Position numbers and translations under genes: made by a program
Notes under the pieces: generated by a model
The model's database searches: none
Told to the model about the DNA's origin: nothing
The model's input: only the letters and a program-made list of their open reading frames with translations
In this document: positions 10,743-20,425 of the stretch, one piece after another
How the letters are laid out: each line of letters begins with the position of its first letter
Position numbering within the stretch: position 1 is the stretch's first letter
From: Bacteroidales bacterium
GTDB lineage: Bacteria > Bacteroidota > Bacteroidia > Bacteroidales > WCHB1-69
Length of the DNA stretch: 27,405 bases
Assembly: GCA_028683685.1 (NCBI GenBank)
Contig: JAQUHH010000001.1
Location: forward strand, 1-27,405
Reading direction: 5' to 3'

Positions 10743-12197
10743 ATGACGCAACAATTAATTTTATGGAGTTTTGTTTTCTACACAGCCTTAATATTTTTCA
10801 TTTCATGGTTGTCATCCAGAAAAGCAACCAACCAAACATATTTTATCGGAAACCGCCAAAGCCCTTGGTTTGTAGTAGCTTATGGCATGATTGGAGCTTC
10901 TTTATCGGGCGTTACTTTTATGTCGGTTCCCGGCTGGGTGGGCGAACGATCTTTTTCGTACATGATGCTTGTATTTGGATATCTGATCGGATATTTTGTC
11001 ATTGGCAGTGTTTTGTTGCCCCTTTATTATCGCCTGCAACTTACTTCCATTTATACCTATCTAAAAGAAAGATTTGGTTTTTGGTCGCATAAAACCGGCT
11101 CTGCTTTTTTTCTACTCTCGCGAAGCATCGGATCTGCATTTCGCATGTATTTGGTAATAAACGTTTTGCAAATTTTCTTATTTGATTCATGGGGCGTAAA
11201 TTTTGCCATGACCACCTTTATTTTTATTACTTTAATTCTATTATACACATTTAAAGGAGGAGTAAAAACCATCATTTGGACCGATACACTCCAAACTACC
11301 TTTATGATTGCCGCCCTTATCATTACCATAGTGATGATAAAAAACAGCCTTGGAACGAGCTTTACACAGTTGATTAGCGATGTTTTTGACAGCAAATATT
11401 CACAAATGATTTTTACCGAATGGCAAGATAAAAGATGCTGGTGGAAACAAATCTTGGGCGGTACTTTTATTGCCATTTCCATGACCGGTTTAGATCAAGA
11501 AATGATGCAAAAAAACATCAGTTGCAAAAACCTTAGAGATGCTCAAAAAAACATGTTCACCTTTAGCATTATTTTAGTATTTGTCAATCTTCTGTTTCTG
11601 ATTTTAGGTGCCGTATTGTTTATGTACAGCCATCATATAGGATTTGACCTAAACAGCATGAAAACGCCAGACGACCTTTTCCCCACTATTGCTTTCCAAC
11701 ATTTAGGACCCATCGCAACCACCGTATTCCTTTTAGGTTTGATTTCGGCGTCCTACTCCAGTGCAGATGGAACTCTCACGGCCTTGACCACTTCTTTTAG
11801 CTTTGATATTCTCGAACTTGATAAAAACGAAAAAATTGATGAACGAAGAAAAAAGACCATCCGTCATATTATCCACATCTTGTTTGCCCTGCTTTTAGGC
11901 GGATTAATTATCTTTTTCAAAACCATCAACAATGAAAGCGTCATTTCGCAAATTTTCACTATTGCCTCCTACACTTACGGACCACTTTTGGGATTATTTG
12001 CATTTGGTCTTTTTACCAAAAGACGAACCAAAGACATCGCGGTTCCTTTTATTGCCGTTCTGTCGCCCCTTATCTGCTATCTATTAAGCACTTACTCCAC
12101 ACAGCTTTTCAATGGATATCAGTTTGATTTTGAATTACTGATGATAAACGGCGCCTTGACATTCTTGATGTTACTGGCATTTAGTAAGAAAAAGTAA
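10743..12197 (+). CDS. Sodium:solute symporter (SSS family), substrate unknown
   Basis: YFIGNRQSPW, GASLSGVTFMSVPG, GGVKTIIWTDTLQ, GLDQEMMQK, SSADGTLTALTTS; many TM segments. Confidence 0.9.
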   Translation: MTQQLILWSFVFYTALIFFISWLSSRKATNQTYFIGNRQSPWFVVAYGMIGASLSGVTFMSVPGWVGERSFSYMMLVFGYLIGYFVIGSVLLPLYYRLQLTSIYTYLKERFGFWSHKTGSAFFLLSRSIGSAFRMYLVINVLQIFLFDSWGVNFAMTTFIFITLILLYTFKGGVKTIIWTDTLQTTFMIAALIITIVMIKNSLGTSFTQLISDVFDSKYSQMIFTEWQDKRCWWKQILGGTFIAISMTGLDQEMMQKNISCKNLRDAQKNMFTFSIILVFVNLLFLILGAVLFMYSHHIGFDLNSMKTPDDLFPTIAFQHLGPIATTVFLLGLISASYSSADGTLTALTTSFSFDILELDKNEKIDERRKKTIRHIIHILFALLLGGLIIFFKTINNESVISQIFTIASYTYGPLLGLFAFGLFTKRRTKDIAVPFIAVLSPLICYLLSTYSTQLFNGYQFDFELLMINGALTFLMLLAFSKKK

Positions 12198-12261
12198 CTG
12201 AGTAAACAAGTGACTAAGTGACTGAGTAACTCAGGCGTGAGCACCCCGTTACCCAGTTACT
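12194..12261 (+). repeat. Octamer tandem array (5 units GTRACYRR-like) plus inverted copy forming a hairpin
   Basis: GTAACTGA GTAAACAA GTGACTAA GTGACTGA GTAACTCA (12194-12233), then GTTACCCAGTTACT (12248-12261), the reverse complement of AGTAACTGGGTAAC. Confidence 0.8.
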
Positions 12262-12340
12262 GTTTCCAGCTTTGCGACAAAAAAAATAATTCATACTTTT
12301 TTGTCAATAAAAATTAAGTATTTTTACAAAAACATTTATT

Positions 12341-15300
12341 ATGAGTTTTACGGTTTATAAAGCTTCTGCAGGTTCTGGTAAAACCTTTAGTTTGGCTAAA
12401 GAATACATCAAAATTACGCTGCAAAACCCTGATGATTTTCGACATATTTTAGCCATTACTTTTACCAATAAGGCGGCAAATGAAATGAAATCACGCATTA
12501 TCGAGTACCTCGCTGATTTTGCAAGCGACGATCCAAATGCTCCTGGGAAAAAAAGTTTACTTCCAGAAATCCTTAAAGAGACAAATTTATCCGAAAGTGA
12601 AGTCATTAGCCGCTCTTCCGTGATACTTAAAAACATCCTCTACAAATATGCCGATTTTTCGGTGATGACCATCGATAGCTTTTTTCAAAAAATAATTCGC
12701 TCTTTTTCACATGACCTTCATATTCCCATTAATTTTAAATTGGAAATGAATCTGGATGAAATTGTAGCTCAAGTGGTGGACAACCTCATTGACAAAGTGG
12801 GGGAAGACAAAGCCATATATGAGATTCTAATTCAATATATTAACAAACTTACAGAAGATAAAAAAAGCTGGCATATCGAGAAAAACCTAGGTGATTTTTC
12901 CAAAGAAATTTTTTCGGAAACCGCTTATCAACATCTAAAAACATTGGATGGTTACGATGTTGACGATTTTATTGAAATCATTAAAAACTTAAGAAATGAT
13001 TCCAATGTCATTTCAAAAGAAATTGTCGAAATAAGTGCAAAGACTATCCAAATTATTCAGCAACAAAACATTGGTCTCGAAGACTTTTACGGAAAAACAA
13101 GAGGCATTGGGGCCTGGCTTCTCAAAATTCAAGATGGACATAAAGAAGTCTCTAATGCAGTATTGAAAGCCATTAAAGATGATGTTTGGTTTTCTAAAAC
13201 TGGATATCTTCCGCATTTTGACATTATTAAAGAAGAAGTTACCTTAAAAATAACAAAGATTGTTCAAGACATTCGGGATTATAATGACATAAAAAGAATT
13301 AGCAAAGACATTTATGCTTTGGCATTGGTAAATCAAATCAAAAATGTAATTTTTCAAATAAAAGATCAGGAAAATCTATTTTTTATTTCCGAAACCAATT
13401 TTGTTTTGGCAGATGTACTTCTAAATCAGCCTACTCCATTTATTTACGAACGAATTGGGGAACGCTATTTTCATTACTTTATCGATGAATTTCAAGACAC
13501 TTCAAAACTCCAATGGAACAATATGATTCCTTTGATTTTAGAAGCCATTTCAGGACTTCACAATCAAAAACCAGGTTCGGCCATAATTTTTGGCGATCCA
13601 AAACAATCCATTTACCGCTTTAGAGGGGGCGATTTTATGCAGTTTATCAATTTGCCAAAGGTGAAAACGGAAAACGATGAACTTATGGATATTGCTGCCA
13701 ACAATTTGATTTCTGCAGATTTTCGCACACAGAATCTCGACACAAATCACCGCTCAAAAATGCAAATTATCGACTTTAACAACAAACTTTTTGACAGTAT
13801 AAAATGCTATATCCCCGAATATTCTAAGCTTTACGAAGATCATGAACAGAAGTTTAAAAATGAAAAAGAAGATGGTATTGTGGATATTAGCATCATCAAC
13901 AAAGAGAAAAAATCAGATGCCGAATATCTAGCAATGGTCTACGAGCGCATCTTGGAAATTATCAACAAAGCAAAAGAGGAAAATTATCAATTAAAAGACA
14001 TTGCCATTTTAGGTCGCGAAAAAAAAATACTTAGAAATATTGCAAGCGTTTTAAACCACCATAATATCCCCATTATTTCGTCCGACTCTTTGCAATTGGA
14101 CTCTTCTCCTGTGGTGAGATTTTTGAAAAACATGATTCATCTTCATAAATCAACCAACGACCAAATAATTAATGCAGGCATTATTAATTATTTGTCGGAT
14201 CAAAATCCAAGCATTAATTTTGAAGAATCACTCTCTTATTCAAAAGATTACCACAGCTTGTTGGATTTTTTCAAAAAATATAATTTTGATGTTAAGTCAG
14301 ATATTTGGGCACAACTCAATATTTATGATTTATGCGAAGAGATGATTCGCACATTTATCGATTCTGAGCATGTAGACGCCTATTTAATGGGCTTTATTGA
14401 TGTTGTCTACAAATACCATATCGATGGCGAATCAGAAGCAGCATTCAGTGAATGGTGGAACGAAAACAAAGAAAAACATTCCATTGCAGTACCCGAAGGA
14501 ATTGATGGAATAAAAATATTGACGATTCACGCTGCCAAAGGCTTGCAATTTCCAATTGTAATTACTCCATTTAGCTCCTTTCGAAGAAAACTTTCTGAAA
14601 TTTGGATTTCAGCAGAGGAAATGAGCGAAGAAATTCCTTCATATAAACTTCCAAGTGCCCGAATTAAAGACTCTTCAGCATCCGAAGACAGTCGCTTTTT
14701 TAAAAAAATTTCCGAAGAACACACTTTGTCCACTGTGGATGAAATAAACGCTGCGTATGTTGCCCTCACACGTGCTGTGAATCGGCTCTATATCATACTT
14801 CCAACACCCAGTGAAAGTGCTTTAAAAAAAGAAGATTACCAATTTGAAAAAGTAATGTCGAGTTTTGTGAAAAACAATAATTTTACAGAAACAATATTTG
14901 ATAATTACACCAATTACAGCGTCGGATACGAAGAAGTAAGGGATGCAGAAAATAACCTAGAAATTGAAAACAACAATAATTTTTCAAATTTTATTTCCAA
15001 AAAATGGTATGATTCTGTGGTTCAGATTCCTAAGAAAATCGAATCAGAAGCCATTGAATGGGGTAGTTTATTTCACTATACCATGCAACATATTGTACAC
15101 TTGAAAGATATGGAAAATGCCATTGAAAGAACACGTTTACACTATATTTTAGACGATGATGTTTGCAAAAAACTATCAGAATTGGTGGTACAAACCTGCG
15201 AAAACCCAATGCTTAAGGATTATTTCAAGGAAGGGATAAAAGTCTACAACGAAAAATCAATTATGGACAGCAGCGGCGAAATTTTCCGTCCTGACCGCCT

Positions 15301-15475
15301 AATTATAGATAAAAATAGAGCTGTAATTATCGATTTCAAAACTGGAATCCCCAAAGAGATCCACCAAGAACAAGTTTTAAATTACAAAAACCTACTTCTG
15401 GAAACTGGAATCGAAGAAATTCGAAGCTTTGTTGTTTACGTAAATGATGATAAAACAGAAGCTGTGGAATATTGA
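12341..15475 (+). CDS. UvrD-family helicase with C-terminal RecB-type nuclease (AddA/RecB-like)
   Basis: ASAGSGKT, AITFTNKAANEM, IDEFQDTS, GDPKQSIYRFRG, TNHRS, LTIHAAKGLQF, YVALTRA; C-terminal RPDRL...IIDFKTG...QVLNY PD-(D/E)xK motif. Confidence 0.9.
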   Translation: MSFTVYKASAGSGKTFSLAKEYIKITLQNPDDFRHILAITFTNKAANEMKSRIIEYLADFASDDPNAPGKKSLLPEILKETNLSESEVISRSSVILKNILYKYADFSVMTIDSFFQKIIRSFSHDLHIPINFKLEMNLDEIVAQVVDNLIDKVGEDKAIYEILIQYINKLTEDKKSWHIEKNLGDFSKEIFSETAYQHLKTLDGYDVDDFIEIIKNLRNDSNVISKEIVEISAKTIQIIQQQNIGLEDFYGKTRGIGAWLLKIQDGHKEVSNAVLKAIKDDVWFSKTGYLPHFDIIKEEVTLKITKIVQDIRDYNDIKRISKDIYALALVNQIKNVIFQIKDQENLFFISETNFVLADVLLNQPTPFIYERIGERYFHYFIDEFQDTSKLQWNNMIPLILEAISGLHNQKPGSAIIFGDPKQSIYRFRGGDFMQFINLPKVKTENDELMDIAANNLISADFRTQNLDTNHRSKMQIIDFNNKLFDSIKCYIPEYSKLYEDHEQKFKNEKEDGIVDISIINKEKKSDAEYLAMVYERILEIINKAKEENYQLKDIAILGREKKILRNIASVLNHHNIPIISSDSLQLDSSPVVRFLKNMIHLHKSTNDQIINAGIINYLSDQNPSINFEESLSYSKDYHSLLDFFKKYNFDVKSDIWAQLNIYDLCEEMIRTFIDSEHVDAYLMGFIDVVYKYHIDGESEAAFSEWWNENKEKHSIAVPEGIDGIKILTIHAAKGLQFPIVITPFSSFRRKLSEIWISAEEMSEEIPSYKLPSARIKDSSASEDSRFFKKISEEHTLSTVDEINAAYVALTRAVNRLYIILPTPSESALKKEDYQFEKVMSSFVKNNNFTETIFDNYTNYSVGYEEVRDAENNLEIENNNNFSNFISKKWYDSVVQIPKKIESEAIEWGSLFHYTMQHIVHLKDMENAIERTRLHYILDDDVCKKLSELVVQTCENPMLKDYFKEGIKVYNEKSIMDSSGEIFRPDRLIIDKNRAVIIDFKTGIPKEIHQEQVLNYKNLLLETGIEEIRSFVVYVNDDKTEAVEY

Positions 15476-15482
15476 AAAAAAA

Positions 15483-15543
15483 GTGACTGAGTAACTGGGT
15501 GACCAGGTGACCAAGTGATTGAAAATTGAAAATCAAAAATCAT
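15483..15543 (+). repeat. Octamer array (5 units) followed by 3 AAATYRA-type heptamers
   Basis: GTGACTGA GTAACTGG GTGACCAG GTGACCAA GTGATTGA (15483-15522), then AAATTGA AAATCAA AAATCAT (15523-15543). Confidence 0.8.
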
Positions 15544-15545
15544 AC

Positions 15546-15692
15546 ACCGTTCACTGATCACAGATTACAGATCACAGATTACTGATCACAGATTACTGAA
15601 TACCGATTACCGATCACAGATTACTGATTACAGATTACTGATCACAGATTACTGATCACCGATTACCGATCACAGATTACCAATTACCATCC
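15546..15692. repeat. Heptamer tandem array, 21 units (ACHGATY on +; GTRATCD on -)
   Basis: Units read directly, e.g. ACTGATC ACAGATT ACAGATC ACAGATT ACTGATC...; 147 bp, ending 6 nt from the stop of the deiminase gene. Confidence 0.95.
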
Positions 15693-15698
15693 ACCTGC

Positions 15699-17435
15699 TT
15701 ACGGCATAGCCACAATACGATGTACACTTATTCCATTTTTCGTTTCAATTTTTACAAAATAGACTCCTTGTTGAAGTTCTTTTGCATTGAAAAAAAGTCG
15801 TTGCATTCCTTCGTTTAAAATTCCATTGTAAACATCCATTACTTTCTTTCCTTGCAAATCAAATAGAGCCACAGAAGTCGCTTCGGGATGAATTAGGTGC
15901 ATTTCGATGCAGGTAATTGCAGAAGCTGGATTGGGAAAAACTCGGTCTACAACAACGTTTTCCATACTTATTCCGGTAGTATTCAAAATCTTAAATCTCC
16001 AATATCCATGAGGGGCAGTAATGGGTCTGTTTATGTTTTTTCCTGAATTTGCTTCCGCATGAATGTAATAAAAAACATTATTTCCAGCTACCTGAGCAGG
16101 AATAGCAGCGGTCCAAATATGATTCTGAGCATCGCTCAAAACCATGGGGACTGGCAGATAAGCTTGATTTGTATCGATGGTATAAAACAATTGAGCAGAC
16201 GCAATTTCCGAAATATGACGAATTATCGCATTTACTGCATAGCCATTTTGATCATCATACGTATCTGAAAGTGCCTTGTGCGAAATCAGCAGAGGCTCTT
16301 TTACCCCAATATTATTGGTAATGCAATGAATGGCACCGCTGGCAGATATTGGATCTGGATCGCAATTGATCGGTACAATATTGTATCCTGGCAAAGCTTC
16401 ACTATAAATCCGAAATGCCGTAGTGTCATATTTTTTATAATAACTTGGATAAATAAAGCTTTTATTGATAAAAACTCCATTTGTATATGTTCTATAGTAA
16501 CTTCCATTGCTGGGCCATGAATTTCCTGCTTGATTTGGAAGCATGGGAATTCGCACAATTTTATAAGGTGTTCCGAAAACAGAGAGATGATTGTTTAACA
16601 AATAAAGCAAATTGGCTTCTATTTGCGGACCGTCAGAAATGCCACTGGGATAATCCCCCAACAACAAAGTTTCTTCATCCAACAATTTCATATGCATGTC
16701 GATATGATGAATTCCATCATGAGGCAAAACTTCAAATTTCACATACCTATCAACTCCCATAAATGATTTCATAATGGTATCAATCTCACTTTCCGTATGA
16801 CTGTATTGGACATTTTCGTCTAAAATTAATTTGGATGAAAAAGCAGTACCAAAACCATCAAACATTAAATTACCTCCGGTATGGGTCAAACGATACGGAT
16901 TTTGAGTCATGGCATACAAAGGCAAATTCAAATATTCTGCATGCACCGATGGAATAACGTCATCCAGCGGACGCGGACGATTGTAAATCCAATCGATTAA
17001 ATAAAGAGAATCCACATCTTCCTTGTACACGCTATACGAGCCATAGTCACGAATCCATACCGAATTAGAAGAAGTAATAATGTATTTCACATTGTCATTT
17101 GAAGTAATTCCCTGTGCTAATAAATAATTTTTAACGGTAGTTGAATCGGTACAATTAATCAAAACCTTACACTCGTTTTGAGCATGACGAATAATTTCTG
17201 CCAGCACCGATTGATAAGTACGCCAAGTAACAGAAATGGCTTCCAACTCTTCCCATTCCGCCATGGCTCTAACAGCAGAAGCGGGCGGATACGCCATCGA
17301 TTTCTGACTCGTCGGGGGCTGATAAAATGGCATTATTTCACGCTCCGCTGGCGTTAGCCCTTTGGGCAATTCCTGTGCATTAAGAATGCAAAAAGCAAAA
17401 AGAAATACCGTTGCAAAAAGGAATGTTTTTTTCAT
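15699..17435 (-). CDS. Agmatine deiminase / Porphyromonas-type peptidylarginine deiminase family protein with T9SS C-terminal domain
   Basis: Signal peptide; AEWEE, WIRDYG, TGGN, HHIDMH, GAIHCIT (catalytic Cys); C-terminal VFPNPAS...LFDLQGKKV...GVYFVKI T9SS type A sorting domain. Confidence 0.88.
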   Translation of the reverse strand: MKKTFLFATVFLFAFCILNAQELPKGLTPAEREIMPFYQPPTSQKSMAYPPASAVRAMAEWEELEAISVTWRTYQSVLAEIIRHAQNECKVLINCTDSTTVKNYLLAQGITSNDNVKYIITSSNSVWIRDYGSYSVYKEDVDSLYLIDWIYNRPRPLDDVIPSVHAEYLNLPLYAMTQNPYRLTHTGGNLMFDGFGTAFSSKLILDENVQYSHTESEIDTIMKSFMGVDRYVKFEVLPHDGIHHIDMHMKLLDEETLLLGDYPSGISDGPQIEANLLYLLNNHLSVFGTPYKIVRIPMLPNQAGNSWPSNGSYYRTYTNGVFINKSFIYPSYYKKYDTTAFRIYSEALPGYNIVPINCDPDPISASGAIHCITNNIGVKEPLLISHKALSDTYDDQNGYAVNAIIRHISEIASAQLFYTIDTNQAYLPVPMVLSDAQNHIWTAAIPAQVAGNNVFYYIHAEANSGKNINRPITAPHGYWRFKILNTTGISMENVVVDRVFPNPASAITCIEMHLIHPEATSVALFDLQGKKVMDVYNGILNEGMQRLFFNAKELQQGVYFVKIETKNGISVHRIVAMP

Positions 17436-17451
17436 GGGTGTATTTTTTTTT

Positions 17452-17459
17452 CAAAAGTA
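17452..17459 (-). promoter_or_regulatory. -7 promoter box (TACTTTTG) for the deiminase gene, preceded by an A10 tract
   Basis: TAnnTTTG on the minus strand 16 nt upstream of ATG 17435. Confidence 0.6.
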
Positions 17460-17508
17460 AGTTTTTTTTTTAAAACTATTTTAAAAAAAATAAGAACGTA
17501 TTTGTGGA

Positions 17509-17527
17509 ACTCAGTTACCCAGTTACT
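17509..17527 (-). repeat. Short octamer array copy downstream of the SNF2 gene
   Basis: Minus strand reads A GTAACTGG GTAACTGA GT; it shares the exact 14-mer GTTACCCAGTTACT (17514-17527) with 12248-12261. Confidence 0.7.
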
Positions 17528-17542
17528 ATCTTTCCCCTCCTC

Positions 17543-20425
17543 TTAGCTCAATAAATATTTCACATCTTCTTTGCTCAAATTCTTAACAAATCCATCATCG
17601 GTGGTTATCAATGATTCAAAAAGTTTGATTTTTTCACTTTGCAATTCCAAAATTTTTTCTTCAATGCTGTCTTTGGTGATAAATTTATAGACAAAAACAT
17701 TTTTTTTCTGACCGATGCGATGAGCTCTGTCATAGGCTTGAGCCTCCGCTGCCGGATTCCACCACGGATCGAGCAAGAAAACATATTCAGCTTGAGTAAG
17801 ATTTAAACCCAAACCTCCTGCTTTTAGCGAAAGCAGAAAAATCTTAAAATCATCATTGTTTTGAAAACGATCCACTTCCGCTTGCCTATCTTTGGTTTGT
17901 CCATCTAAATAACAAAACGGGATAGATTCCTTTTTCAGATGACTTACAAAAAGCTGCAAATGCTTTACAAAACTACTAAAAACCAATACTTTATTACCCG
18001 ACTCTATCAACAATTGCAACATTTCGATGACCATGCTAAATTTGCCCGAAGAATCTTCAAAAGTTGTGTCAAAAAGCTTTGGATGATTCGCTATTTGTCG
18101 CATTCGCAAAAGTCCTTCCAGTAAATTAAATTTAAAATTACCCTCCGGTTCATCTCCACTTTTTAAAATCGACTGCCTAATTTCATTTTTTACACTTTTA
18201 TATATTTCGGATTGCTCCGGTGTCATTTCACAATAATTGGTTGAAATTATTTTTTCTGGCAAATCCTTGGCAACCAATGTTTTCAATCGTCTCAAAACAA
18301 AAGGTCGGATAATTCTGCTCAACAATTGCATCCGCTCAGCAGTATTAAAAGTATTTAGAAAATGCGAAAGTGGACCGAAAATATTACGATTTACAAAGTG
18401 CATCTGACTCCATAAATCCACTACCGAATTCTCAACCGGGGTTCCGGTCAAAGTTAGATAATGATTTGCCCTTACCATCATGCTGGCTCGATGAATGCCA
18501 GATTGTGGATTTTTTATGTATTGTGCTTCATCTAAAATAAAATGAGAAAAAACCAAATCTTCAAACATCAAAATGTCTTCTCTCAAAATGGCATAAGAAG
18601 TAATAACAGTATCATTTTCAAAAAAAATGCTGGGATCTGTCGTCCTTTTGTAGCCCGAATGCGTATATATTTTCAGTTGTGGACAAAAATGAGCCGCTTC
18701 CCGTTTCCAATTTTCCAACAAGGACTTTGGCACCACCAATAAACTGGTTTGCTTTTTTTGCTCCTTCATTTTCTGCAACAAACATAAAGTCTGTATTGTT
18801 TTCCCCAACCCCATATCATCTGCCAAGCAGCCACCTAGGGACATTTCGCTTAAAAACATCAACCAATTGTAGCCCGTTTTTTGATACGGTCGCAAAATTC
18901 CCACAAAACCATTTGGCAATTCATATTCAGGAATTTCGTTGACTTCCATCAAAGCCATCAATTTTTTATTCAAATCAAACTTTAAAACACCCTTTTCTTG
19001 CATCTCTTCCAACAACACAAAATGATGCTTGGGCGTAAGCACTTTTTTATCCTGAAAGACACTGTAATTTCCCAAAATCGAATACTCTTCAATCCAAGCT
19101 GCGGGAAATTTTGCAAATTCTCCATTGGGCAGACGAATTTCAGAGCGTTTTTTCACAATTAAAGCGATAATATCCTTTAAATCAAACGTATATTCCCCAA
19201 ATTTCACGCTGCCTTTCAATTCAAACCAATCAATTCCTTCTTCTACATCTACCTGAATGCTGGAAGTTCCGATAAAATAATTTTTTTCATGTCGAACTCC
19301 TTCTTTTCTACGAATCTCTATCCCCATCTTTTCCAGCAATTTATAGTTGATATTCAACCATTCAATGCCTTCGTCAAATGATAATACTTGAAAAGTCAGG
19401 GAAAAACTCATTCCCATCGACTTCAAGTCTTTTACAATGCTTTTTTCAAACTCCATATCGCGTTCAACACGATAAAAGATGAGTTTTTGATTATCTGTTT
19501 CCCTGAAAACAAATTTGGTATTCTGTCCGATTTGATACGGATACTTATCGTATTCAAAAATCAAATTAAATCGCAATTTCAAATCAACATCCTCAGAATT
19601 ATCTTCATCAAACAGATTCATTTGTTGCGATTTCATTTCGCTCGTTACTGCCAAAACAATATTTGGTTTTGTTTCGATATCTACAATTGAAAAACCATTG
19701 GCAATCACTTTTTTGGTTCGCATTAAGAGCGGCTCCACAAAAAGTTCAAAATAACTATCCACCGAAGAATTCGATATTTCCAGGGTTTCTTTGCTAAAAT
19801 AAGGCAATAAATTGGTTCCTAAAACATCTTCATCAAATTCAAAAATACTGTTTTTTCGAAGAATTCGAGCCGGCATTGTGGACAATAAAACCGAGTGAAA
19901 AAGATTTAATTTTTTATTTTCATAAACTACATCCAAAAAGTATCGAATGCCTTCATCATGTCTATCAAAATGATAAAAAACATCTGGTTTCCCTTCTTCT
20001 ATCGATAAAGGTTTCCACATAGCAGGATTATCGCCATTCCATAAATAGATATTTTGTCCATCCAACTGTTTGTAAAACTTATCCAAAGACTGATTTATAA
20101 TGCTTTTTAGATATTCTCTCATTTGCAAAACTTTTCTATCTTTCGTTTTATGAACAAAATATTTTCCTGAAAAAGCCGACCACTTTTGAGCATTTTTGTC
20201 ATCTAATTTTTTAATAATTGTTTCGGGTTCCAATTGAATGCAATATTTCAACAGAGCCCTTTCAACAAGAGACAAATCAGATTCGTAATTCTGCTTATTT
20301 CTGGAATAAATCAAAGAATAGCGCAAATCAATCATCCCATCGGTATAACTAACCAATACGAGATGAGGAATGATTCCCAAATTCTCAACATCTTTCAATA
20401 AAACAGCAATTTTTTTTTCCGTCAT
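17543..20425 (-). CDS. SNF2-family (DEAD/DEAH box) helicase/ATPase
   Basis: LRPYQKTG, LADDMGLGKTIQ, ILDEAQYIKN, LTGTPVEN, VLVFSSF, LDGQT, LSLKAGGLGLNLT, DPWWNPAAEAQAYDRAHRIGQ. No SWIM zinc finger seen in the N-terminus. Confidence 0.93.
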   Translation of the reverse strand: MTEKKIAVLLKDVENLGIIPHLVLVSYTDGMIDLRYSLIYSRNKQNYESDLSLVERALLKYCIQLEPETIIKKLDDKNAQKWSAFSGKYFVHKTKDRKVLQMREYLKSIINQSLDKFYKQLDGQNIYLWNGDNPAMWKPLSIEEGKPDVFYHFDRHDEGIRYFLDVVYENKKLNLFHSVLLSTMPARILRKNSIFEFDEDVLGTNLLPYFSKETLEISNSSVDSYFELFVEPLLMRTKKVIANGFSIVDIETKPNIVLAVTSEMKSQQMNLFDEDNSEDVDLKLRFNLIFEYDKYPYQIGQNTKFVFRETDNQKLIFYRVERDMEFEKSIVKDLKSMGMSFSLTFQVLSFDEGIEWLNINYKLLEKMGIEIRRKEGVRHEKNYFIGTSSIQVDVEEGIDWFELKGSVKFGEYTFDLKDIIALIVKKRSEIRLPNGEFAKFPAAWIEEYSILGNYSVFQDKKVLTPKHHFVLLEEMQEKGVLKFDLNKKLMALMEVNEIPEYELPNGFVGILRPYQKTGYNWLMFLSEMSLGGCLADDMGLGKTIQTLCLLQKMKEQKKQTSLLVVPKSLLENWKREAAHFCPQLKIYTHSGYKRTTDPSIFFENDTVITSYAILREDILMFEDLVFSHFILDEAQYIKNPQSGIHRASMMVRANHYLTLTGTPVENSVVDLWSQMHFVNRNIFGPLSHFLNTFNTAERMQLLSRIIRPFVLRRLKTLVAKDLPEKIISTNYCEMTPEQSEIYKSVKNEIRQSILKSGDEPEGNFKFNLLEGLLRMRQIANHPKLFDTTFEDSSGKFSMVIEMLQLLIESGNKVLVFSSFVKHLQLFVSHLKKESIPFCYLDGQTKDRQAEVDRFQNNDDFKIFLLSLKAGGLGLNLTQAEYVFLLDPWWNPAAEAQAYDRAHRIGQKKNVFVYKFITKDSIEEKILELQSEKIKLFESLITTDDGFVKNLSKEDVKYLLS

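Follow-up and report, generated by a model that had tools for sequence, protein, structure and literature searches.

To our knowledge, intergenic heptamer and octamer repeats of bacteria have been on record since 1990 without an accepted function. Here, we examine four tandem arrays of such units (A1 to A4) in a 27,405-nucleotide (nt) stretch of a Bacteroidales genome (the window; positions 1 to 27,405 of contig JAQUHH010000001.1, assembly GCA_028683685.1), which stand behind the stop codons of genes for a sodium:solute symporter, a UvrD-type helicase, a peptidyl-arginine deiminase, and an SNF2-family helicase. The arrays belong to a known class of intergenic repeats in bacteria; three of them are built of an 8-nt unit, GTRACYRR, and the fourth of a 7-nt unit, GTRATCN. 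Up to a distance of about 25 nt from a stop codon, the mRNA strand is the G-rich, C-poor strand of such arrays, and farther away their orientation is random. An initial annotation of the window had taken the arrays for ladders of stop codons and suggested a translational insulator, a binding site for a termination or RNA-processing factor, or the footprint of a mechanism adding repeats to gene ends. On balance, we lean towards an account in which all four are unexceptional examples of the slippage-prone intergenic hepta- and octanucleotide repeats, the ladder is a by-product, and the polarity not explained by overlap with gene ends most likely acts on the 3′ untranslated region (UTR).

Among the closest described systems are the TAACTGA heptamers, found as direct repeats in marine Beggiatoaceae, some Cyanobacteria, and five Bacteroidetes (MacGregor 2015, PMC4679880). 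In forward orientation they carry stops in all frames, so that their overlap with the ends of open reading frames (ORFs) is limited, and the majority of the BOGUAY sets are located directly upstream of a start codon, again in forward orientation (PMC4679880). The unit GTAACTGA of our arrays is G plus TAACTGA, and the octamer GTRACYRR comprises this unit together with its transition variants. Common to both systems are the intergenic location, a patchy phylogeny, lineage-specific expansion, and, in Bacteroidetes, long arrays mixed with other heptamers. However, the period is 7 there and 8 here, with the transition variants, and the rule in BOGUAY concerns starts, whereas here a sharp rule applies at stops and none was seen at starts.

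G-rich heptamers, GGGAATC in Xanthomonas and GGGGA(C/T)T in Nostoc PCC 7120, occur downstream of ORFs, mostly 0-50 bp from the stop and on the coding strand, with some overlapping the stop; they form G-quadruplexes, and their positions are relatively conserved from one Xanthomonas species to another (Rehm et al. 2015, PMC4692102). As in our arrays, the G-rich strand is the sense strand near stops, and tandem inverted arrangements occur too. Unlike these heptamers, our units are not prone to form G-quadruplexes, and our arrays are mostly absent from sister species. Mazel et al. are said to have described, in 1990, the short tandemly repeated repetitive (STRR) heptamers of heterocystous cyanobacteria, several families of 7-nt tandem repeats reportedly filling intergenic spacers, with no accepted function. 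The reverse complement of STRR2 (TTGGTCA) is TGACCAA, which is contained in our unit GTGACCAA; the STRR sequences belong to another phylum, and the period here is 8 nt. In enterobacteria, repetitive extragenic palindromes (REPs) and the bacterial interspersed mosaic elements (BIMEs) built from them are palindromic intergenic elements that are concentrated downstream of genes, seldom occupy divergent spacers, and become part of transcribed 3′ UTRs; each REP is one imperfect palindrome, mobilized by a REP-associated tyrosine transposase (RAYT). Our elements differ in being tandem arrays, and the search for a RAYT found none.

Strand polarity of arrays near stop codons

The source genome (G000) is a fragmented metagenome-assembled genome (MAG) of 347 contigs, 2.4 Mb in size, with 34% GC and an estimated completeness of 76%; the window is its contig C205. 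Genes of the window were taken from an ORF list and labelled with Pfam profiles, and tandem repeats were defined with Tandem Repeats Finder (TRF). For comparison we used genomes of sister species or the same genus (G001, G002, and G003), a wastewater run or strain (X9), and an unrelated Bacteroidota genome with many GTRACYRR arrays (G393). Orientation was counted over all non-trivial 7- and 8-mer arrays of G000 pooled with a 190-kb contig of G393.

Arrays located between -12 and +25 nt from a stop had more G than C on the gene strand in 24 cases and more C than G in 1. Sorted by distance to the gene 3′ end, arrays up to 25 nt away gave a ratio of 22:1 (p=6e-6), those at 26-100 nt one of 5:10, and those at 101-300 nt one of 9:8. 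The ratio was 24:0 when only upstream genes of at least 450 nt with a good coding score were admitted and 11:0 when the count was limited to arrays that start after the stop; G393 by itself contributed nine co-oriented arrays out of nine. Loci from other phyla gave 11:0 (GC below 0.5, ORFs of at least 150 amino acids, 1-25 nt past the stop), an earlier count having stood at 15 to 4. All 47 octamer arrays of G000 taken together showed no orientation bias, with about 10 co-oriented and 13 anti-oriented arrays in same-direction spacers, and at gene 5′ ends, where start calls are approximate, no significant orientation rule was seen (2:6 within 25 nt). The array's G/C asymmetry, rather than its stop codons, is the oriented feature, and no farther than about 25 nt from a stop. 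This confinement narrows the search for a cause to the first bases of the 3′ UTR, that is, to the terminating ribosome, Rho loading, R-loops, or 3′-end processing.

Three other sources of the polarity were considered and rejected. There was no general GC skew behind stops, the values being about 0.00-0.08 over 785 gene ends. Replication direction is not the source, since over 5.3 kb of the window (12194-17526) the arrays change orientation along with the local gene while cumulative GC skew is monotonic. An ORF-calling artefact that hides anti-oriented arrays in ORF ends was rejected since the polarity also holds with strong genes and past the stop; only two weak candidates of this kind (on C92 and C119) were found, compared with about 29 co-oriented arrays.

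Array-bearing spacers numbered 0.43 per kb in convergent, 0.16 in tandem, and 0.04 in divergent spacers of G000. Array density rises with how many gene 3′ ends border a spacer.

The octamers form a genuine repeat family. At 8-nt spacing the core GTRAC gave 51 arrays in G000, compared with 0 to 11 (about 4) at other spacings from 5 to 15 and 48 at the double spacing of 16; at 7 nt it was not enriched (6 arrays). Merging left 47 octamer arrays, 45 of them outside called genes, and the GTRACYRR pattern had 68 matches, whereas the same pattern read backwards had none. Other unit families of this genome are GAAAGTT, GATTGAG, and GGACAGGT. The arrays share with the STRR-like long simple sequence repeats the tandem organization at many loci, the intergenic location, and copy-number change by whole units. 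Chance low-complexity sequence or an assembly artefact, suggested by the fragmented MAG and by the tendency of repeats to break contigs, has practically nil probability, given the 8-nt excess, the empty backwards control, and the recovery of the region's DNA in contigs of 14 independent studies with length differences of whole units. The organism is common in metagenomes from manure, compost, wastewater, and landfill, and its place in the Bacteroidota is borne out by a window gene with a type IX secretion system sorting domain.

The four arrays and their stop codons

The elements discussed below are as follows.

10743-12197, plus strand: sodium:solute symporter gene (ORF list; Pfam SSF, 92.9 bits)
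12194-12233, plus strand: octamer array A1, five GTRACYRR units with unit 2 degenerate, one arm of a palindromic module (sequence, TRF)
12230-12242, minus strand: central motif GCTCACGCCTGAG in minus-strand reading, a small GC hairpin (motif count, sequence)
12245-12260, minus strand: inverted arm, GTAACTGG GTAACGGG on this strand, pairing with A1 (folding)
12341-15475, plus strand: UvrD-type helicase gene (ORF list, Pfam)
15483-15522, plus strand: octamer array A2, five units, directly preceded by AAAAAAA (sequence, TRF)
15518-15533, plus strand: mini-array of 2.3 ATTGAAA units between A2 and A3 (TRF)
15544-15692, minus strand: heptamer array A3, about 21 GTRATCN units, length-polymorphic (sequence, TRF)
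15699-17435, minus strand: Porphyromonas-type peptidyl-arginine deiminase gene (PAD_porph) with a type IX secretion system sorting tail (ORF list, Pfam)
17511-17526, minus strand: octamer array A4, two units (sequence)
17543-20425, minus strand: SNF2-family helicase gene (ORF list, Pfam)
C238:1663-1977, minus strand, outside the window: S23p gene (PF05635, 23S-rRNA-IVS protein; Pfam, 133 bits)

The description of these sites in the initial annotation proved accurate in its main points. The four arrays do follow stop codons directly, starting 0-16 nt past them. The symporter stop TAA (12195-12197) falls within the first octamer unit of A1, as both the sequence and the ORF list confirm; the units of A1 are GTAACTGA GTAAACAA GTGACTAA GTGACTGA GTAACTCA. 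The helicase stop TGA (15473-15475) runs into an A-run, and A2 (GTGACTGA GTAACTGG GTGACCAG GTGACCAA GTGATTGA) begins 7 nt past this stop. A4 (GTAACTGG GTAACTGA) lies 16 nt past the SNF2 stop (17543-17545), and the distance of A3 from the deiminase stop (15699-15701) is between 6 nt, counting degenerate units, and 18 nt at the TRF boundary. Read on the gene strand, units start with GT(A/G)A, which places TRA at positions 2-4, in 5/5 units of A1, 5/5 of A2, and 2/2 of A4; in A3 this start is found in 19 of 22 units in the best phase.

The convergent spacer 15476-15698 (223 nt) is built wholly of repeat modules, and in either half the G-rich strand lies on the side of the gene to which that half belongs. 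A3 shows higher-order periods of 14 and 56 nt (15544-15687; TRF scores 200 and 225) and several GATC/TGATCA sites. The first bases past the deiminase stop, GCAGGTGGATGG, resemble the GGGCAGGT/GGACAGGT octamer family on C108 and C311.

All three sense-strand frames are indeed closed, with 3, 2, and 3 stops per frame in A1, 2, 3, and 2 in A2, and 6, 7, and 6 in A3. This part of the ladder claim stands; that it exceeds chance does not, as a random 7- or 8-mer of this base composition closes all frames on a given strand with a probability of 0.47-0.52. Among 27 stop-proximal arrays of the two genomes, a ladder was present on the sense strand only in 10, on the antisense strand only in 3, on both in 7, and on neither in 7. 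Sense ladders (17/27) are therefore indistinguishable from the chance rate of about 0.5, while G exceeds C at 24:1. A C-poor strand is rich in stops because stop codons contain no C, and we infer that the ladder is best read as a by-product of strand composition, not as a purpose.

The unit itself tells a similar story. In 113 units from 30 TRF-defined arrays, conservation was 98% at G1, 100% at T2, 100% at R3, 99% at A4, 96% at C5, 97% at Y6, 100% at R7, and 96% at R8, which means that four positions (G, T, A, and C) are fixed and four toggle by transitions only. The A/G toggle at position 3, of which the initial annotation had remarked that it preserves the stop, is just one of these four, and TRA (99%) does not surpass G1, C5, or the purine/pyrimidine class at positions 6-8 (96-100%) in conservation. 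The proposed strand-oriented, stop-preserving core shared by both periods survives in its orientation near stops (22:1 and 24:0) and in the GTRA start of the units of either period; its stop content, however, predicts orientation poorly. Of the two observations that the annotation had set against its own view, random orientation genome-wide and TRA no better conserved than other unit positions, the second was thus made, and the first was made away from stops, orientation being strongly non-random within 25 nt.

A translational insulator or readthrough guard, that is, arrays kept for stopping ribosomes in three frames behind the gene, is the least likely of the three suggested functions and, in our estimate, very improbable. 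It would accord with the sense-strand ladders of the window, with a polarity limited to about 25 nt (by our own estimate roughly the distance before a chance stop in an AT-rich spacer), and with the overlap of about one in two stop-proximal arrays with the ORF end, where the array itself provides the stop. In G003, moreover, the symporter TAA is replaced by CAA, and the ORF is 8 codons longer and ends at a TAA within the degenerate array. Against a guard stand the even conservation of the unit, the contrast between the ladder count and the G excess, and arrays without a ladder that have the same polarity, such as C108:362 GGACTGGT (35 G, 9 C) and G393:80746. A single in-frame stop would be enough, whereas arrays of up to 18 units occur. 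On population-genetic reasoning, rare readthrough is under very weak selection. Arrays are also absent at orthologous genes of sister species, and the heptamers GGGAATC and GGGGAYT carry no stop codons, which is our own reading of the published units and not a claim of that study (PMC4692102). All this argues against annotating such arrays as translational insulators.

If the ladder is a by-product, the polarity might have two components. An array that overlaps an ORF end would, in the opposite orientation, be open in all frames; the protein would be extended, and the array would be lost by selection, so that co-oriented arrays would remain because the reverse orientation extends the ORF. The remaining polarity, seen in arrays 1-25 nt past the stop and in those that lack stops, most likely has its effect in the transcribed 3′ UTR. 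RNA that is rich in G and poor in C might be tolerated or used directly behind the terminating ribosome, for instance as a platform for proteins to bind, as one side of a stem of the RNase-III type, or as a tract with GC skew at which transcription pauses or terminates, and we would guess that the C-rich, G-poor orientation, which resembles a Rho-loading site, is selected against.

Several points weigh against this account. Non-ladder arrays that obey the G-over-C rule are few, about 7 in the two genomes plus 4 in other phyla. In G003, the array caught a lost stop after 8 codons, so that some benefit as a backup stop may exist. Gene calls came from a home-made ORF scorer, in which stop positions are exact and some small genes possibly spurious, a weakness mitigated by the recount with strong genes. 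Finally, of the 20 sequencing runs holding this DNA, none is on record as RNA; one run with a small share is labelled metatranscriptomic and probably contains DNA.

Palindromic modules, S23p cassettes, and distribution of the arrays

Arrays typically form part of a larger order, in which an A-run is followed by the array, a mini-hairpin (G[TC]GCTCACGCCTGAG or GTGCCTGACGGCAG), and often an inverted second arm that completes a long hairpin; the A-run and the terminal hairpin motifs are common to different unit families. The motif GC[TG][CT]A[CA]GCCTGA occurs in 10 copies in G000, compared with 0.5 expected, each directly behind a G-rich array. A1 belongs to such a palindromic module because it is accompanied by a copy of the central motif and by the inverted arm at 12245-12260, and A2 and A4 lack an inverted partner. 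The hairpin formed by A1 and its inverted arm (12194-12262) has a folding energy of -25.3 kcal/mol (z -3). Its tail is UGUUUCC only, and a terminator consensus scan gave no match at any of the four arrays; judged by its sequence, the hairpin does not look like a canonical terminator. Rfam families had no match anywhere in the window.

The S23p gene on C238 is flanked by two direct copies of the palindromic module, each composed of a GTRACYRR array, GCGCTCACGCCTGAGTAAATTGAG, and an inverted array (C238:1470-2231); with 11 and 18 units, these modules hold the largest octamer arrays of G000. In six genomes, 9 of 17 S23p loci had a 7- or 8-mer array within 150 nt, including GTGACTAG arms in G393. 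S23p is presumably a four-helix-bundle protein related to the nucleic-acid-binding Avd of diversity-generating retroelements. [quoted passage not shown] Like the S23p/IVS cassettes, in which the S23p ORF is enclosed by complementary arms, the S23p gene of G000 stands between palindromic modules. The window arrays, however, are neither in rRNA nor beside an S23p gene, the cassette of this kind lying elsewhere in the genome, on C238, and shared modules are the sole link.

These modules bear on the second suggestion, that the arrays are RNA-level sites, either multivalent sites for a single-strand RNA-binding protein or, as inverted pairs, RNase III stems, which would set mRNA 3′ ends or stability, with S23p as a candidate partner. 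We regard this as possible, if doubtful. The strand specificity of the polarity relative to transcription argues for it, as do the conserved GTRAC core with purine/pyrimidine class kept at the other positions, the stable hairpins of inverted arms, the modules bracketing S23p genes in both G000 and G393, and the precedent of the Coxiella repeats. However, many different unit sequences follow the same polarity, which makes a single sequence-specific partner unlikely, arrays are not conserved at orthologous genes, and roughly one array in two is remote from any stop, in one orientation or the other.

The arrays differ between strains and species. In the X9 contig, A3 is shorter by 84 nt (12 units; 15552 is joined to 15637), A2 is unchanged, and A4 is longer (array at 17513). 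G003 has a degenerate copy at the A1 site, in which an indel of 23 nt (a difference of 23-24 nt) removes the module centre and one inverted arm, and a different repeat element at the A4 site. The array behind the deiminase stop is absent from the orthologues of G001 and G002. Across 30 same-genus relatives, the GTRACYRR pattern had 0-3 matches each, compared with the 68 of G000. Arrays of at least 4 units were present in 2 of 401 sampled Bacteroidota genomes (G000 and G393), and the backwards control pattern in 5, so that the idea of a specially widespread octamer was dropped; across GTDB, GTRACYRR occurs in many phyla, at more than 119 loci. Each genome expands its own units, and array expansions are lineage-specific.

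Such patchiness would also be expected of the third suggestion, in which a mobile palindromic cassette, that of S23p or a similar one, inserts preferentially at gene ends and leaves the arrays as its solo arms or derivatives, with polarity as an insertion bias rather than a result of selection. The module of array, GCTCACGCCTGAG, and inverted array at 10 sites, two of them flanking S23p, the frequency of arrays at S23p loci, and the G003 indel that takes out the centre plus one arm are in line with it. On the other side, no transposase, RAYT, or reverse transcriptase linked to the arrays was found in the 76%-complete assembly, in which RVT_1 had no match at all, target-site duplications were not seen, and S23p copy number does not track the octamers, G002 having 7 S23p genes and 3 pattern matches. 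We consider this explanation distinctly unlikely. Mobilization of the RAYT/IS200 type was rejected, with the same limit of completeness, as the sole Y1_Tnp match (PF01797) is a domain within a large methylase-like ORF. This frame, open over more than 838 amino acids, spans contig C159 (1-2514), contains the IS200-like domain at 52 bits, and looks like an N6-adenine methylase or a type IIG restriction enzyme. XisH and XisI, whose co-occurrence with such repeats had been suggested (MacGregor 2015), gave no matches, and control genomes gave none either.

A bolder combination takes the arrays for the arms, themselves non-autonomous, of an S23p cassette (S23p being an Avd-like four-helix bundle) that is widespread; their strict polarity behind stop codons would then mark a conserved mechanism, at the level of RNA or R-loops, that operates at the 3′ ends of bacterial genes in different phyla, whatever the unit sequence. 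We hold this to be unlikely; were it true, GC-skewed termination, insulation of convergent transcription, and processing by S23p or RNase III would be candidate processes. The arrays are slippage-variable modules of composite palindromic intergenic elements and share modules with the S23p cassette, and this sharing points to a concrete protein candidate. Taken alone, the window is of little practical value: its arrays are strain-variable markers and a cause of contig breaks.

Two further repeats of G000 were noted. A second intergenic element of about 40 nt, TTCCGAATTGCAAAAATCTTCGATTTTGTGACAATTCGAG, with the hairpin stem CGAATTG/CAATTCG, occurs on C53, C152, C192, C311, C321, and C46, often directly behind an octamer array, and is also present in G003 at the site orthologous to window positions 17490-17545. 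A CRISPR-like repeat, GTTTCAATTCCAGAATGGTGTGATTAAA, is found in about 19-25 copies on contigs outside the window and constitutes the most frequent non-trivial 12-mer family.

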